This document shows positions 25,497 through 29,660 of a stretch of 36,310 bases of DNA, one piece after another. Below the pieces are notes generated by a model. It worked only from the letters and a program-made list of their open reading frames with translations. It did not search any database and was not told the origin of the DNA. Made by a program: the position numbers and the translations under genes. Position 1 is the first letter of the stretch; every line of letters starts with the position of its first letter. Source of the stretch: a virus; IMG/VR virus record IMGVR_UViG_3300042273_000209, one strand, 5' to 3'.

Positions 25497-25509
25497 CCTC
25501 CCTTCCACA

Positions 25510-25540
25510 ATAAAAAAGAGGGGCCTTTCGGCCCCTCTCT
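25510..25540 (-). terminator. Rho-independent terminator ending the minus-strand block
   Basis: Minus strand reads gaggggcc-gaaa-ggcccctc then TTTTTT. Confidence 0.7.
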
Positions 25541-25677
25541 CTCGCGGTGAAAAACTTACACTCGTCCATGTGTCTTCCTCCTCCCTCTCTACCAGCATCT
25601 CCACCCTGGGGTGTGATGTTGCCGGGCTTGTAGGCGCACCGGCGGCCTATGTCCCCTTTGGGGCTCGCTTTCTGCCC

Positions 25678-25974
25678 CTACAAATGCGTATACAGCCCTG
25701 TTTCGGCTGCGAAGACTGCCTGGAGCTGGTCGAAGTAAATGCCTTCGACCGTCTCCTCCGTTTCGACGTCTCCCCACTTCCCCAGCTTGCAAAACCGGAG
25801 GTCGTAGACGTCGGCTGGGGTCAATGTGACCTCCAGGTAGTTATACCTTGCGGATCCCCTGAATTTAAATCGCAGGGAATCCCTTGTAGCCACAAGGTGT
25901 TTTGCACCAGTCATGGCGACAAACATGTTGCCGCCGAGCTGGTCCAGTATCGTCGTTGCTACGGTGGTGTCCAT
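25678..25974 (-). CDS. Hypothetical protein (minus-strand block gene a)
   Basis: GGGGGAGG RBS upstream; balanced composition unlike antisense frames. Confidence 0.6.
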   Translation of the reverse strand: MDTTVATTILDQLGGNMFVAMTGAKHLVATRDSLRFKFRGSARYNYLEVTLTPADVYDLRFCKLGKWGDVETEETVEGIYFDQLQAVFAAETGLYTHL

Positions 25975-26006
25975 TTTCGTCCTCCCCCTTGTTTTTTTAC
26001 CTGACG

Positions 26007-26059
26007 GGCCTCATCAGTGGCGGCGTCACCGCCAGACGCCCGCGAAGGGCGTTTCGGCC
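26007..26059 (-). ncRNA. Type II hammerhead ribozyme motif, copy 1
   Basis: Minus strand: ggcc-GAAA-stem III (cgccc/gggcg)-UC cleavage site-stem I (uggcgg/ccgcca)-CUGAUGA-ggcc; all core nucleotides present. Confidence 0.55.
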
Positions 26060-26089
26060 TAGGCTTCCTCCTCGTCGGGGATATAGTCG

Positions 26090-26127
26090 ACCTTTCGGTG
26101 AAGATGCCAGGGGCCCTTCGGCCCCTG
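26090..26127 (-). repeat. Intercistronic repeat element A (hairpin plus aucuucaccgaaaggu box)
   Basis: Same 16-nt box and flanking GC hairpin recur at 26466-26505. Confidence 0.5.
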
Positions 26128-26144
26128 CCCCCTGGCATTAAGTT

Positions 26145-26435
26145 CTACAGCTCGATGACGTCCGGTGCGTCGCGCAGGATTTTCATGTACCGCAGATGCT
26201 GGTACATGTACTGCGGACCCTGGTTGATCTCGACGACCTCGACCTGGCCGCCGAGGGGTGTGGTGTGCAGAGTGACAACCTCTTCGATGCCCTCGCTGAC
26301 CTCCTCGCGGCTTGCCTCGGCCTCCTCGGTGCCCTCGGGCAGGGCGATGGCGATCCCGTCCTCGTCGCTGCCGGGGTACGTCTCCCAGAACTCCATGTGG
26401 CCCGGAATACGGGAACTCTCGATCCAAAATCCCAT
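26145..26435 (-). CDS. Hypothetical acidic protein (gene b)
   Basis: AAGGAGGG RBS upstream. Confidence 0.6.
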   Translation of the reverse strand: MGFWIESSRIPGHMEFWETYPGSDEDGIAIALPEGTEEAEASREEVSEGIEEVVTLHTTPLGGQVEVVEINQGPQYMYQHLRYMKILRDAPDVIEL

Positions 26436-26465
26436 GGCGATCCCTCCTTTTAGGGGCTATATGCA

Positions 26466-26505
26466 ACCTTTCGGTGAAGATAGTAGGGGCCCGAAGGGCT
26501 CCCGC
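26466..26505 (-). repeat. Intercistronic repeat element B (copy of box plus hairpin)
   Basis: Box identical to copy A; hairpin loop inverted with stem preserved. Confidence 0.5.
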
Positions 26506-26506
26506 G

Positions 26507-27064
26507 CTACGCGTCATCTCCCTTTTTCGCGATCGCCTCACGGGCGTTGTGGATGCCCGTGAGGACGCACGTGTACTCTTCTTTCAGGGCGGCGAGCGCC
26601 ACCCGTTTCCAGGCGGCGAGGGCCTCCTCTGGCGTCGGCGCGCGCCCAATCTCGCACCGACTCTTCATCCAGGAGGTCAGCCGATCGAACTGGCTTAGGC
26701 CCTCGACGCTGAACTCACAAACGTCACGGTATCTGTCGCTGAAACCGTGACGCAGCGTCACCAACCCCTGATGCCTCCCCTGGGCGGGGGAGATATACAG
26801 GTCCTCGACGCCGATGCCGTTGAACACGTCGAGGAAGAATTGCAAGGTGGACTCGATCTCAGACGCGGCGGCGAGTGCCGCCTCCGGGTGGGCGGCTGCC
26901 ATGGCCCGTGTGACCTCGGGGCCATATCCGCGATGCCCCGCCTCCCGGAACACGGCGTACCACCCCGCCGTGCCGTGGGGCGGCGTCGTCGTATCGTGCT
27001 GCTCCACCCCTCCGGAGAAAAAATCATCTCCGTGGGGCATGGGCCCCTCAGTGAACCACGACAT
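26507..27064 (-). CDS. Hypothetical protein (gene c)
   Basis: GAAGGAGGA RBS; protein-like composition. Confidence 0.6.
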   Translation of the reverse strand: MSWFTEGPMPHGDDFFSGGVEQHDTTTPPHGTAGWYAVFREAGHRGYGPEVTRAMAAAHPEAALAAASEIESTLQFFLDVFNGIGVEDLYISPAQGRHQGLVTLRHGFSDRYRDVCEFSVEGLSQFDRLTSWMKSRCEIGRAPTPEEALAAWKRVALAALKEEYTCVLTGIHNAREAIAKKGDDA

Positions 27065-27113
27065 CTTTTTCCTCCTTCCCCCGCCCGTGCGGGAATCAAC
27101 GGGGCCTGTGCCC

Positions 27114-27167
27114 CGGCCTCATCAGTGGCGGCTCTACCGCCAGACGCCCCTTGCGGGGCGTTTCGGC
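27114..27167 (-). ncRNA. Type II hammerhead ribozyme motif, copy 2
   Basis: Same architecture as copy 1; stem III closed by GCAA tetraloop, stem I loop differs; CUGAUGAG and GAAA cores intact. Confidence 0.55.
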
Positions 27168-27551
27168 CTAGGCGTCGTCGACGTCGTCGACGTCCTGCAG
27201 GGCCTCGAGGTGCTCCGCGATGAACTCGCGGAGTAGACGCCGTTTTTCCCTCATCGAGTCGGCCAGCTCGTAGTCTGCCGACTCGCTGACGGGGAGGGGG
27301 TACTCGCTGTACCCCATCCCCTTGCAGATGGCCCGCTCGACCATCTGCAGGAGCTTAAGGTCATACTGCCCCACGGGTTCGCCGTCGTACATCGCGAACC
27401 CGTGGACTAGTGCGTCTTGGACGCTGCGCCCCCACTGGCCAATCGTGCCAGCAGAGGCAAAAAACCCCACGTGGACACTGCTACCGCGCCGGGTGACGCG
27501 GTAGAGATCCCCGCGCCGGATCGGGTCGTGGTGCAATGAGAACCTTTTCAT
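27168..27551 (-). CDS. Hypothetical protein (gene d)
   Basis: GAAGGAGGA RBS before internal ATG; 5' UTR paralogous to that of gene c. Confidence 0.55.
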   Translation of the reverse strand: MKRFSLHHDPIRRGDLYRVTRRGSSVHVGFFASAGTIGQWGRSVQDALVHGFAMYDGEPVGQYDLKLLQMVERAICKGMGYSEYPLPVSESADYELADSMREKRRLLREFIAEHLEALQDVDDVDDA

Positions 27552-27622
27552 TCTGTCCTCCTTCCCCCGCCCCGTGGCGGGAGCACTGTCCCCCCTTGCG
27601 CCCTGTGGCGCAGGAGGGAGGG

Positions 27623-27652
27623 AGAAAAAAGGGGAGCCGAAGCCCCCCCTTT
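27623..27652 (-). terminator. Rho-independent terminator or attenuator after gene e
   Basis: Minus strand: 7-bp GC stem with UUCG tetraloop followed by UUUUUU. Confidence 0.6.
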
Positions 27653-27669
27653 GTCGGCGAGGCCTAGCT

Positions 27670-28116
27670 TCAGGCCTCGCCGTTGGCCCGTGCCGCCATC
27701 CGGCGAGCACGGGCAAGAGAGCCCGCCGGAAGCTCCGGGGCGTAAAAGCCCCGGTGGCGGAAGATTGCTGTCTTCCGCACGGATCCGTCCGGGAGCGTCT
27801 CTTCGACGGACTCCCGTACGGAGAAGGCGTACACGGGCGCGATGCCCGCGTTCGCTAGCTCGCGTTCGAGTGGGGCCATCAGCCACATGGCCCCTCCGAT
27901 CATGGCGAGGACCTCGTCGCCTTCGCCGACGTTCCCCGCCGCCCGCCGGGCGATTTCGGCAATCGCCCGGGCGCGAGCCTCGGGCTCCCCGTCGCGGGGG
28001 AGCTCCGTGAAGGTGAGGAGCTCCTTGAGCTCCTCGTGGTCGGCCCCGGTGAGGTCGACCACCCCGGCCTCGACCTGCTCGGTCGAGGCTTGGTGCTGCG
28101 TGAGATTCAGGATCAT
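27670..28116 (-). CDS. Hypothetical protein (gene e)
   Basis: AAGGAGGG RBS before ATG at 28116; longer upstream extension rejected. Confidence 0.55.
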   Translation of the reverse strand: MILNLTQHQASTEQVEAGVVDLTGADHEELKELLTFTELPRDGEPEARARAIAEIARRAAGNVGEGDEVLAMIGGAMWLMAPLERELANAGIAPVYAFSVRESVEETLPDGSVRKTAIFRHRGFYAPELPAGSLARARRMAARANGEA

Positions 28117-28270
28117 CCTGAATCCCTCCTTTCTGCCCCATCTGGGGGCGATGAGATCGGGCCGAGGCCCGTCGTTTCCTTTGTTCCCCCCGCTTGGCCG
28201 CCCGGAAAGGGCGTTGCCCGCCGACCGCAGCGTGGAGGCGCGGGGGTTGGTCGGCATCTACGGCCAGGAG

Positions 28271-28612
28271 CTAAACCTGGTCGTAGAGTTGTACCTCGCC
28301 GCGTCGGCGAGGCAGGAGGCGGTATTCCGTCACCGCCTCCGCCGAAGGAGCCACGTAGATCGTGGCCCCCACGGCCTTCTTCGCCGATTTCCCCCGCGCA
28401 AGGGGCGCGTAGGGTTCGGCGTCGTGGGCCCGGACGACGTAGATGCTGCCGCCCGGGCCCGCGTACTGCACGGCCTGGTCCCAGGACGTGGTGAAAAACG
28501 CCACGTCCCGGAACCCCCGCCTCTCCTCTTCCCCCGCACGGATGTTTCCCGTGCGGGACGAGGGGAGAATTTCCCTCAGGCCCCGGATGGGGCTCCCATG
28601 TAGAAGTTCCAT
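28271..28612 (-). CDS. PARP-like (H-Y-E type) mini ADP-ribosyltransferase candidate (gene f)
   Basis: LLHGS; F-x10-Y segment FFTTSWDQAVQY; later TEYRLL, read as the H-G-S / Y-x10-Y / catalytic Glu signatures of PARP and diphtheria-toxin-like ARTs. Confidence 0.4.
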   Translation of the reverse strand: MELLHGSPIRGLREILPSSRTGNIRAGEEERRGFRDVAFFTTSWDQAVQYAGPGGSIYVVRAHDAEPYAPLARGKSAKKAVGATIYVAPSAEAVTEYRLLPRRRGEVQLYDQV

Positions 28613-28651
28613 CCGGGGCCCCCTTTCCGGGGCCTCGCGGCCCGTTTCGAC

Positions 28652-29095
28652 CTAGTTCCCCTCCGCCCGCATGAGGCGGAGGGAGAGGGGCAAATCCCAC
28701 GCCGACAGAGTCTCCGCCCTGTCGGCGTCGTCCATCCCGAGGTCCAGACGTCCGTAGGCGTCGTACCTCGGGGCCGGGGCCTTGTCGGCCCCCTCCTCGT
28801 CGGCGCGCTCCTCGGTGATCTCGATTACGATCACCGGGATCGCTTCCAGGCCCGCCAGTCTCGCCGCGGCAATGCGGTGAGACCCGGTGTGGGCCTGGAG
28901 GCCCATGGGTGACTGGGAGGCCAAGATCGGCCGCCCCTGCCACCCATGGGCCTCCATGGATGCCGTCAGGGACGCCAGTTTTTCAGCGTCCCTGACCTCG
29001 TGCGGAGGCTCGACCTCGTTGGGGTCGGCCTCCGCCTCTGCTTCCGTTAGGGTGACCGTCCATAGGTCACCCCACTCGTCCTGGATCTGGGGCAT
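28652..29095 (-). CDS. ParB-like N-terminal-domain protein (gene g)
   Basis: GRPILASQSPMGLQAHTGSHRIAAARLAGLEAIPVIVIE; AAGGAGGTG RBS before ATG 29095 (alternative ATG 29194). Confidence 0.6.
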   Translation of the reverse strand: MPQIQDEWGDLWTVTLTEAEAEADPNEVEPPHEVRDAEKLASLTASMEAHGWQGRPILASQSPMGLQAHTGSHRIAAARLAGLEAIPVIVIEITEERADEEGADKAPAPRYDAYGRLDLGMDDADRAETLSAWDLPLSLRLMRAEGN

Positions 29096-29323
29096 GACGG
29101 TCACCTCCTTCCTTTTTTTTTTGCCCTGGCAGTGGCTGGTGTCGTCGACCTCGCCCGGCTCGCGCTGCCCCTGGGGGGGCTTCGCGGCGGTCATGGCGCG
29201 GGTGGCTGACGACGCTGCCCGATGCCAGTCGATGGGTGCCAGGGGATACTTTCCCGCCCGGCTTTCTGTCGGCCGCCCATCGCGGCCTTCCCGTTGTCAA
29301 GGTCCCTGTCGCTTGGTGATTAC

Positions 29324-29352
29324 ATTATATATGCCGTTGGGCAGTTGTGCAA
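29324..29352 (-). promoter_or_regulatory. Sigma70-like promoter for the minus-strand block (TTGCAC-17-TATAAT)
   Basis: Near-consensus -35 and -10 with 17-nt spacer on the minus strand. Confidence 0.55.
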
Positions 29353-29382
29353 TAGGCCTATAGGACCATCTTGCACAACTGC
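29341..29382. promoter_or_regulatory. Candidate operator: 12-bp perfect inverted repeat GCAGTTGTGCAA-N18-TTGCACAACTGC
   Basis: Perfect 12-bp arms; left arm overlaps the minus-strand -35. Confidence 0.55.
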
Positions 29383-29402
29383 ATCTGGTACTTTTCGCCT
29401 AC

Positions 29403-29431
29403 TTGCGTTATAGTGATATCTGTGGTATTGT
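29403..29431 (+). promoter_or_regulatory. Sigma70-like promoter for the RHH gene (TTGCGT-17-TATTGT)
   Basis: Hexamers about 40 nt upstream of ATG 29469. Confidence 0.4.
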
Positions 29432-29468
29432 GGGTGGCAGATATTATCGAGGAGGGGGGTGTACCAAA

Positions 29469-29660
29469 ATGTCCAACAACATCCGCAACATCCGCAACAT
29501 CCGCATCGCCACTCCGGCCACGCCGGAGATGGCACGTCAATTTCGTATCGCCTGCGCCGTCGCTGGGCGCAGGCAATCGGAGGTGTTGAGGGAGTTGATC
29601 CAACGATGGGTCAGCTCCCAATCGACGGCCCGCTCAGGCGGGAATGCTGCCAACGGTTGA
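29469..29660 (+). CDS. Ribbon-helix-helix (CopG/Arc-like) DNA-binding protein
   Basis: GAGGAGG RBS; RHH-like segment; contains 3 x 9-nt repeat encoding IRNIRNIRI. Confidence 0.55.
   Translation: MSNNIRNIRNIRIATPATPEMARQFRIACAVAGRRQSEVLRELIQRWVSSQSTARSGGNAANG

Follow-up and report, generated by a model that had tools for sequence, protein, structure and literature searches.

Paired GC hairpins and ribozymes in the intergenic leaders of a phage accessory gene cassette

Introduction

In prophages, tandem type II hammerhead ribozymes flank genes and cleave polycistronic RNA, several of them lying between small genes of unknown function within one phage transcription unit (Perreault et al., 2011; PMC3088659). 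Such multi-ribozyme arrays around small phage genes have been described before (PMC3088659, PMC6765202), and the role of many of the hammerhead, twister and hepatitis delta virus (HDV)-like ribozymes that adjoin phage genes is largely elusive (PMC6765202). RiboJ is a synthetic insulator in which the hammerhead of satellite tobacco ringspot virus (sTRSV) and a 23-nt hairpin precede the ribosome-binding site (RBS), and it raises expression (PMC6206723). Here we analyze two leaders, A and B, that precede genes c and d in a phage gene cassette. Each consists of a pair of GC hairpins (hairpin 1, hp1, and hairpin 2, hp2) followed by a strong Shine-Dalgarno (SD) sequence, and leader B directly follows a predicted hammerhead. 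The window, to which all coordinates refer, is the whole 36,310-nt stretch of IMG/VR record IMGVR_UViG_3300042273_000209.

Like the prophage arrays, the locus is a single phage transcription unit in which several predicted ribozymes separate small genes that have no assigned function; its hammerheads share the type II topology, the GUC cleavage site and the conserved core, and the 3' tail of the second hammerhead (HH2) is complementary to loop I. Unlike them, its copies score below the Rfam gathering threshold, a GC hairpin replaces the pseudoknot tail of the first hammerhead (HH1), an HDV-like ribozyme shares the operon, and a repeated hairpin-hairpin-SD leader, not previously described, lies downstream. 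The predicted ribozymes add new members to known families. Neither the hairpin-hairpin-SD leader nor the hairpin abutting stem II belongs to a described family, as judged from Rfam 15 and the literature we searched; both are of known kinds, namely 5' or intercistronic stabilizing hairpins and ribozyme-plus-hairpin insulators.

RiboJ has the same order of hammerhead, hairpin and RBS, and in both cases only hairpin-containing RNA would remain 5' of the RBS after cleavage, which is predicted here. Unlike RiboJ, the leader of the window is natural, follows a type II ribozyme and has two hairpins, and folding gave no evidence of SD exposure. Stable 5' stem-loops and a strong polypurine SD are also found among 5' stabilizers of mRNA (ompA-type stem-loops, polypurine or strong SD sequences, ribosome blocks to RNase J1; PMC3997798, PMC5737220), and the 5'-OH of a ribozyme product is the type of end that RNase J1 attacks; the hairpins of the window, however, are internal until a ribozyme or RNase makes a 5' end. 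PeSL cassettes of T4-type phages (PMC2839356, PMC4122927) are likewise short, conserved intergenic stem-loop cassettes that lie between small accessory open reading frames (ORFs) and shuffle as modules, but a PeSL is a promoter plus a terminator-like stem-loop, whereas the leaders described here have no promoter and are tied to an SD and to ribozymes. Phage hairpin operators (the MS2 and PP7 coat protein sites, and the T4 RegA and gene 32 type) are small hairpins near the RBS, repeated before several genes. Such operators keep particular bases in the loop or bulge and extend over the SD or AUG, whereas the hairpins of the window vary in their loops, stop 3-5 nt short of the SD and have no evident binding protein.

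Results

Two leaders share a hairpin pair and an exact repeat around the SD

Genes c and d, the fourth and fifth of seven small genes in a minus-strand cassette, are read from the minus strand together with their leaders (Table 1). An initial annotation, made from the letters of the window, had claimed that both genes are preceded by two GC hairpins with ACAG and ACGG loops, different stems and an identical RBS, and had taken these paralogous structured leaders for a translational operator recognized in trans. The hairpins are present, on the minus strand. In leader A, hp1, which can be extended by pairing of CUCCCUCC (27620-27613) with AGGGGGGA (27596-27589), is followed by hp2, GGAAGGAGGA, CAGA and AUG; leader B runs hp1, GUUGAU, hp2, GAAGGAGGA, AAAAG, AUG. 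The identical RBS was also confirmed: the 13-mer GGGGGAAGGAGGA, at 27568-27556 in leader A and 27082-27070 in leader B, occurs exactly twice in the window, and the full exact repeat around it measures 17 nt (GGGCGGGGGAAGGAGGA, repeat family D15). The SD core in leader A lies 5 nt before the ATG at 27551. The stems differ as claimed in hp1 only, since the hp2 stems of the two leaders have the same sequence bar one extra C-G pair.

To describe the arrangement we used a descriptor consisting of a GC hairpin, at most 14 nt, a second GC hairpin, at most 8 nt, an SD and a start codon. It matched the window three times (at 28171, 27612 and 27115), in each case before one of three consecutive minus-strand genes: a gene of 148 aa, c and d. 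Thirty composition-preserving shuffles of the window gave a mean of 0.6 matches and a maximum of 2. In 350 nt of native context, each of the four hairpins of leaders A and B is predicted to pair with a probability of roughly 0.9 or higher at 37 °C, and of 0.74-0.96 at 60 °C. The description of the leaders as paralogous, structured and non-random is supported. The third leader, before the 148-aa gene, carries hairpins of other sequence (CGGGC-CUCG-GCCCG at 28171-28158 and GCCCC-CAGAU-GGGGC at 28149-28135) and an SD core GGAGG at 28129-28125; as the layout is the same, the two hairpins are a property of the cassette and not only of c and d.

Table 1. Positions of the leaders, predicted ribozymes and adjoining genes in the window.
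Feature	Position	Strand	Description
HDV-like ribozyme, between gene b and 148-aa gene	28255-28185	-	RF02682, 37.3 bits vs gathering 44, E 1.7e-4
Third leader, before 148-aa gene	28255-28117	-	HDV-like ribozyme, two hairpins, SD; ATG 28116
148-aa gene	28116-27670	-	Pfam MJ1673 (precomputed match); PADLOC Csx20, E 1.2e-7
Terminator-like hairpin	27649-27625	-	GGGGGGC-UUCG-GCUCCCC + U6; between 148-aa gene stop and leader A hp1
Leader A hp1	27612-27597	-	UGCGCC-ACAG-GGCGCA; pair probability 0.92
Leader A hp2	27581-27566	-	CCCGCC-ACGG-GGCGGG; pair probability 0.91
Leader A 17-mer	27572-27556	-	GGGCGGGGGAAGGAGGA; contains SD core GGAGG 27561-27557
Gene c	27551-27168	-	127 aa, no function assigned
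HH1	27168-27108 (Rfam match)	-	RF02276 type II hammerhead, 34.0 bits vs gathering 37, E 2.9e-4
HH1 stem II	27168-27165 / 27118-27115	-	GGCC with GGCC
HH1 GAAA	27164-27161	-	A15.1-U16.1 pair = A27161-U27144
HH1 stem III	27160-27145	-	CGCCCC-GCAA-GGGGCG
HH1 GUC cleavage triplet	27145-27143	-	predicted cut C27143/U27142
HH1 stem I	27142-27126	-	UGGCGG-UAGAG-CCGCCA
HH1 CUGAUGA	27125-27119	-	core
Leader B hp1	27115-27100	-	(C)GGGGC-ACAG-GCCCC(G), core 27114-27101; pair probability 0.97
Leader B hp2	27094-27079	-	UCCCGC-ACGG-GCGGGG; pair probability 0.91
Leader B 17-mer	27086-27070	-	GGGCGGGGGAAGGAGGA; SD core GGAGG 27075-27071; ATG 27064
Gene d	27064-26507	-	185 aa, no function assigned
HH2, before gene f	26059-26002	-	RF02276 type II hammerhead, 29.0 bits vs gathering 37, E 5.9e-3

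The leader recurs as a module before unrelated genes

Protein searches with c and d, followed by contig retrieval, gave a handful of related cassettes. In addition to the two copies in the window, contigs L003, L009 and L012 carry seven copies of a common module: hp1, a spacer of 5-8 nt containing UUGAY or GUGAC, hp2 with the stem UCCCGC/GCGGGR, and a polypurine SD. These copies stand before at least six non-homologous genes, and descriptor matches reach 5-7 per 10 kb in the relatives, whereas 0.95 Mb of unrelated loci gave a density of 0.66 per 10 kb.

The stem of hp1 takes several forms: UGCGCC, GGGGC with a variable run of G, GAGGAGGGC, and one inverted copy. On a gap-free core alignment (A3), three of its five pairs are altered on both sides, with 96% of cells paired, and 4 of 500 shuffles did as well, so that the covariation check proposed in the initial annotation came out in favor of a conserved hp1 structure. 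When the whole module was aligned with MAFFT (A1, A2, A4), the alignments were inconsistent in structure, and no covariance model was built; hp2 was examined by hand. Its stem is conserved in sequence, with one C-G to U-A change, one wobble change and a C-G pair inserted in four copies. Among the stems we counted eight G-U pairs versus four C/A positions, the latter mostly at stem ends, which points to selection on the sense-strand RNA.

The loops behave differently from the stems. Those of hp1 read ACAG (five copies), UUCG (three) or CUGU (one), and those of hp2 ACGG (three), ACAG (three), UCAG, GCAG, GCCG or GCG; the conserved part of hp2 is thus its stem and not its loop. The step from conserved loops to an operator recognized in trans is not supported by this comparison, and support for a loop-reading operator is weak.

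Exact-pattern scans of IMG/VR (hp2 plus SD; hp1 plus hp2) returned only the phage of the window and chance coding-region matches in unrelated GC-rich phages. A looser hp2-plus-SD pattern gave more than 120 matches in 185,579 species genomes, nearly all by chance, and no host could be drawn from them. At L003 1749-1906, hp2 and the SD are followed by the AUG of a 40-codon ORF that spans a whole hammerhead and overlaps the start of the next gene; this may be fortuitous.

Predicted ribozymes occupy the gaps of the cassette

Rfam at gathering thresholds gave no match anywhere in the window; ribozymes emerged only in a search at the level of E-values (4.2 kb). This search placed three ribozymes of two classes, all under the Rfam gathering scores, in intercistronic gaps of the one seven-gene cassette (Table 1). 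HH1, with an element extent of 27168-27115, carries every defining hammerhead sequence feature, and its first G is the last base of the UAG stop codon of gene c. For HH2 the predicted cut is C26035/U26034. The HDV-like element is strikingly close to the genomic HDV core, with P1 (GCCGACC/GGUCGGC), P2 (CCCCCG/CGGGGG), L3 (UCCACGC), GGGCAAC, P4 and the J4/2 cytosine, and is predicted to cut 5' of G28255. We aligned 14 members of the hammerhead family, taken from the window, its relatives and eight further IMG/VR phages. Stems I, II and III emerged unaided from RNAalifold, with compensatory changes in 10 of 17 pairs, and the core is invariant across the 14 members.

The module and the ribozymes adjoin closely. 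A ribozyme lies immediately upstream of leader B, the third leader of the window, and the copies L003_484, L003_2678 and L009, and the gap between stem II and hp1 measures 0-1 nt in each of the five copies linked to a hammerhead. In leader B the distance from the 3' strand of HH1 stem II to hp1 is 0 nt, which puts hp1 at the site where most type II hammerheads carry a tail that pairs with loop I (PMC3088659; Rfam alignment). Loop I of HH1 (UAGAG) has no complement downstream; a pseudoknot with hp1 or with the hp1-hp2 spacer was looked for and not found. Loop I of HH2 (UGACG) pairs with the 3' tail CGUCA. On the leader A hairpin pair (27626-27558) Rfam gave only whalefall-1 (15.3 bits, E = 3), which we treated as noise. 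A small ORF that runs from the AUG within CUGAUGA to a UGA in the leader B spacer was set aside, as it is not conserved in L003 or L009.

The HH2 tail, taken as CGUCAG (26006-26001), is a complement of the core CUGAUG as well as of loop I. In the family, the tail right after stem II tracks the free core position N7 (CUGACGAGGCC-GUCAG, CUGAUGAGGCC-CAUCAG and CUGAUGAGGCC-CGUCAG; L175-L181, L013 1-40 and window 26001-26020 (-)), and its complementarity to the catalytic core CUGAYG extends to cases in which loop I (UAAUG) is unable to pair with it. The pattern suggests an alternative hairpin that might sequester the core after cleavage, instead of or besides the published loop I-tail pseudoknot.

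Leaders, ribozymes and genes reassort

An unrelated 72-aa gene in L003 has a leader almost the same as leader B, whereas the L003 copy of d, whose protein is 93% identical, has a variant leader with the hp1 loop UUCG and the hp2 loop ACAG. In L012 a 3'-end remnant of the MJ1673-like gene precedes the leader of c, and the 5' half of a hammerhead is replaced by coding sequence. The HDV-like element of L010 lacks the 5' strand of P1. The junction of genes a and b (28651-28613 (-)) and L003 703-766 both begin in hammerhead fashion, with UAGGUCGAAAC and a stem III hairpin, but lack stem I and the CUGANGA core; they look like ribozyme remnants left by recombination. Shared leaders on different genes, truncated ribozymes and a gene remnant indicate that the cassette recombines at or inside its intergenic elements. 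In leader A, the terminator-like hairpin and the preceding UAGGCC...GACAAA (27669-27625) may themselves be the remnant of a hammerhead 5' half, whose stem III-like hairpin is now followed by U6.

The same layout occurs in other phages

L182, from an unrelated GC-rich phage, has three type II hammerheads, each directly followed by a different GC hairpin (GCGCCCC-UG-GGGGCGC, GCGCC-GUGA-GGCGC and GCGCC-GCGA-GGCGC), an SD and a start codon. L159, from another phage with an MJ1673-like gene and a GC content of 51%, has three paralogous leaders in which a hairpin that varies is followed by GUUUGR, by the hairpin GCGGGC-UUU-GCCCGC, which is conserved, and by an SD. Together these loci indicate that hairpins immediately 5' of the SD, often behind a ribozyme, are a recurrent design reached from unrelated sequences.

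L159, which is a related phage, also contains two further intergenic repeats, both without an Rfam match. One (440-480, 1938-1975 and 2957-2995; TTTTTGACCCATCGGGTCAC...TTTTTTTGAAAGTG) looks like a terminator plus a promoter. The other (840-955 and 1260-1390) is a multi-hairpin unit of about 130 nt, CCCCUGUAUGAUGUGAAAGUCAUACAGGGG...CUGG..AACCUAAAACCAGCAGG..., upstream of two-hairpin leaders.

Discussion

We propose that the hairpin pair and the strong polypurine SD form a portable cis-acting 5'-leader module that would work through its structure and not through its loops, and we put the probability of this at roughly 45%. In the mechanism we envisage, one promoter (TGCACA-16-TATAAT) would drive all seven small genes. 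HH1 would cut after C27143, so that the gene d mRNA would start with a 5'-OH on U27142, a base already paired in stem I, and would continue with stem I, hp1 stacked on the former stem II, hp2 and the strong SD. The HDV-like ribozyme would release the 148-aa gene in the same way, and in leader A the same hairpin pair would stand behind the terminator-like hairpin. RNase J1 enters RNA at the 5'-OH ends that ribozymes make (PMC3997798), and ribosomes on a strong SD block this enzyme (PMC5737220). Stem I, hp1 and hp2, with a 30S subunit held on GGGGGAAGGAGGA, would shield the cistron from 5'-end-dependent decay, whether by an RNase J-type 5' exonuclease or by RNase E-type entry. The hairpins would also let each start region fold independently of the upstream gene or ribozyme, making cassette shuffling possible. 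In the predicted post-cleavage fold of leader B, stem I (0.94) and hp1 (0.90) persist, but hp2 falls to 0.38.

Several results weigh against this proposal. In partition-function folding of 14 leaders, the probability that the SD is unpaired did not exceed that obtained after dinucleotide shuffling of the upstream leader. The SD of leader A is predicted to pair to 97%, its partner being UCUCC at 27625-27621 (unpaired probability 0.03, compared with 0.67 in leader B). Only about nine instances of the module are available, from four closely related contigs, and the sequence conservation of hp2, in which few changes are informative, could result from nothing more than recent duplication. Leader A lacks an intact ribozyme. 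Conservation in relatives is incomplete: the elements recur in L003, L009 and L012 but are missing before the orthologues of c in L013-16, which lie behind a plain 34-nt spacer, and of d in L011, where c and d are 26 nt apart, and the module is hence dispensable for these genes. In L010, d follows the HDV-like remnant. Finally, all nine 4-nt hp2 loops fit N-C-N-G, with positions 1 and 3 alone varying, a pattern that is not expected if the role is purely structural; some constraint on the hp2 loop may thus exist, a residual point in favor of the initial annotation.

Two other roles for the leaders were tried and dropped. That the hairpins serve to keep the SD open found no support in the folding just described, and sequestration of the SD by UCUCC as a regulatory switch in leader A was rejected because the pairing is not conserved in the leader of the L012 c orthologue.

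The loop pattern also bears on the operator of the initial annotation, in which a phage or host protein or an RNA would read the loops and co-regulate translation of c and d. Such a role would fit the loops being identical within the window while the hp1 stem covaries between A and B, and five proteins of the cassette have no known function. We nonetheless hold it improbable, as the loops differ in relatives, including UUCG and an inverted copy with CUGU; hp2 overlaps neither the GGAGG core nor the AUG, stopping 3-5 nt short of the one and 14-17 nt short of the other; and the module precedes genes that are unrelated to one another and is missing before some orthologues of c and d. Among the seven cassette proteins we found no RNA-binding domain or fold, with the models of c and d being of low confidence: Pfam, PHROGs and PADLOC detected only ParB_N and MJ1673/Csx20-like domains, and the AlphaFold models of c and d (predicted local distance difference test scores of 54 and 60) were too poor for fold assignment, all PDB Foldseek matches being non-significant. 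If the hairpins acted instead on DNA, as PeSL-like recombination linkers or palindromic protein-binding sites with the RNA hairpins a by-product, one would expect what is seen in L012 and L010, where breakpoints fall inside intergenic elements, and in the same leader standing before different genes. PeSL cassettes offer a precedent (PMC2839356), and the inverted hp1 copy (L012_427) would be neutral for double-stranded DNA and not for an RNA loop. The excess of G-U pairs over C/A positions, however, points to sense-strand RNA, the arms of hp2 are spaced 3 to 6 nt apart through compensating pair insertion, which suits a hairpin and not a dimeric DNA operator, and the module keeps a fixed position relative to the SD and has compensatory changes in hp1. 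A DNA-level role is therefore rather improbable. Chance GC hairpins beside a duplicated RBS are scarcely credible: five-bp GC hairpins are common in intergenic DNA this rich in GC (about 67%), as the descriptor background in unrelated loci illustrates, but three consecutive matches against 0.6 expected, the recurrence and covariation of the module in relatives and the exact 17-nt repeat all speak against it.

The close contact of hp1 with HH1 raises a further alternative, in which hp1 belongs to the type II hammerhead as a peripheral element. Stacked coaxially on the 4-bp stem II, it would stand in for the loop I-tail pseudoknot and aid the active fold, hp2 being a separate hairpin next to the RBS. 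In keeping with this, hp1 sits exactly where the Rfam model aligns the pseudoknot-forming 3' tail, a tail described as critical for fast cleavage (Perreault et al., PMC3088659), and hammerheads of the same family without a hairpin carry a complementary tail directly after stem II. The following hairpin starts 0 nt after stem II in six of the eight hammerheads that have one, and this spacing occurs in two phage lineages with unrelated hairpins (GGGGC... and GCGCC...). We still consider it unlikely, given that the hairpin pair stands without an intact hammerhead upstream in leader A, L012_997, L003_1272 and L012_176, that the L009 pair is about 60 nt away from its hammerhead, that no complementarity between loop I and hp1 was found, and that a longer stem II lowered activity in a published pseudoknot-type construct (PMC3088659).

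A wider form of our proposal joins the leader module to the ribozymes. Ribozyme, abutting GC hairpin, second hairpin and strong SD would make up a natural, portable insulator resembling RiboJ, evolved by phages; type II hammerheads would have, in the hairpin that stacks on stem II, a peripheral element not yet described, which replaces the loop I-tail pseudoknot; and phages could swap accessory genes, perhaps anti-defense genes like the Csx20-like one, while mRNA 5' end, stability and translation stayed constant. We regard this composite as possible but doubtful. If it holds, it would give the hammerhead and HDV-like ribozymes of bacteria and phages a concrete, testable job. If the hairpins set the stability or translation of the released cistrons, that would explain why ribozymes lie between accessory genes and provide natural, pre-tuned insulator parts; if they are inert, the locus is just one more cassette of genes associated with ribozymes and scarred by recombination. 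Its main interest is the ribozyme-rich context, which makes it a compact, testable case for phage ribozyme function.

Cassette context and other repeats

In this tailed phage, the cassette has the lysis genes on one side and the early region on the other. It starts at the sigma-70-like promoter (29351-29324 (-)) and ends at a terminator at about 25538-25512. This promoter is the only strong one, and none was found in leader A or B. U residues directly after hp1 or hp2, as an intrinsic terminator would have, are absent, U6 occurring only at the separate hairpin 27649-27631. The large terminase is about 50% identical to terminases of Clostridia and Streptococcus phages, and a comparison of the DNA of 25500-29500 with 50,697 phage records returned no similar deposited phage.

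The 148-aa gene could be an anti-defense gene within a phage accessory cassette, as judged from the likeness of its product to Csx20, which is associated with CRISPR types I and III. Metagenome relatives of this gene also lie near hammerheads, with a hammerhead in L161 and a hammerhead-like fragment in L167; the sequences of the module described here are absent from the more distant relatives L158-L173.

A 50-nt repeat precedes genes e and f (26443-26492 (-) and 26067-26116 (-); copies 80% identical) and recurs in L009 (~75-105), L010 (~17-45) and L013 (~530-560 and ~960-985). It consists of two invariant blocks, CTTCACYGAAAG and YATATNCCC, with 6-7 variable nt between them, and usually lies just after a GC hairpin. 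RNAalifold found no conserved RNA structure in it, which suggests a signal at the DNA level, perhaps a phage-specific promoter whose upstream box lies 12 nt from a TATAT resembling a -10 element, a spacing that does not match sigma-70.

Further conserved sequences turned up in bacterial metagenome-assembled genomes (MAGs). The Sphaerochaetaceae MAG CAVEBA01 contains at least nine intergenic copies of a repeat resembling miniature inverted-repeat transposable elements (L037, L042, L066, L079, L081, L089, L100, L117 and L125). Its core, GGCGC-TTC-GCGCC-TGTTGAT-TCCCGC-TYC-GCGGGA-GAGGAG, resembles the phage module, GUUGAU spacer included; inverted GTTGAGGAGTT repeats flank it, no start codon follows, and the likeness is probably convergent. 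A pattern scan also returned a conserved leader in many Solirubrobacterales MAGs, CCCCCGGACGCGGGAGC...GCGUCC...UC-UGAUUCCCGCG-N-GCGGGAGCAGAGGAGG, apparently a structured 5' untranslated region (L041, L054, L059, L068, L069, L098, L104, L110, L122 and L135). Beside the related cassette of L009 lie an IS605-family TnpB gene, its RAGATH-18 RNA (57.5 bits) and a group I intron (63 bits), at 1146-1206, 1253-2443 and 2594-2918, all on the minus strand.

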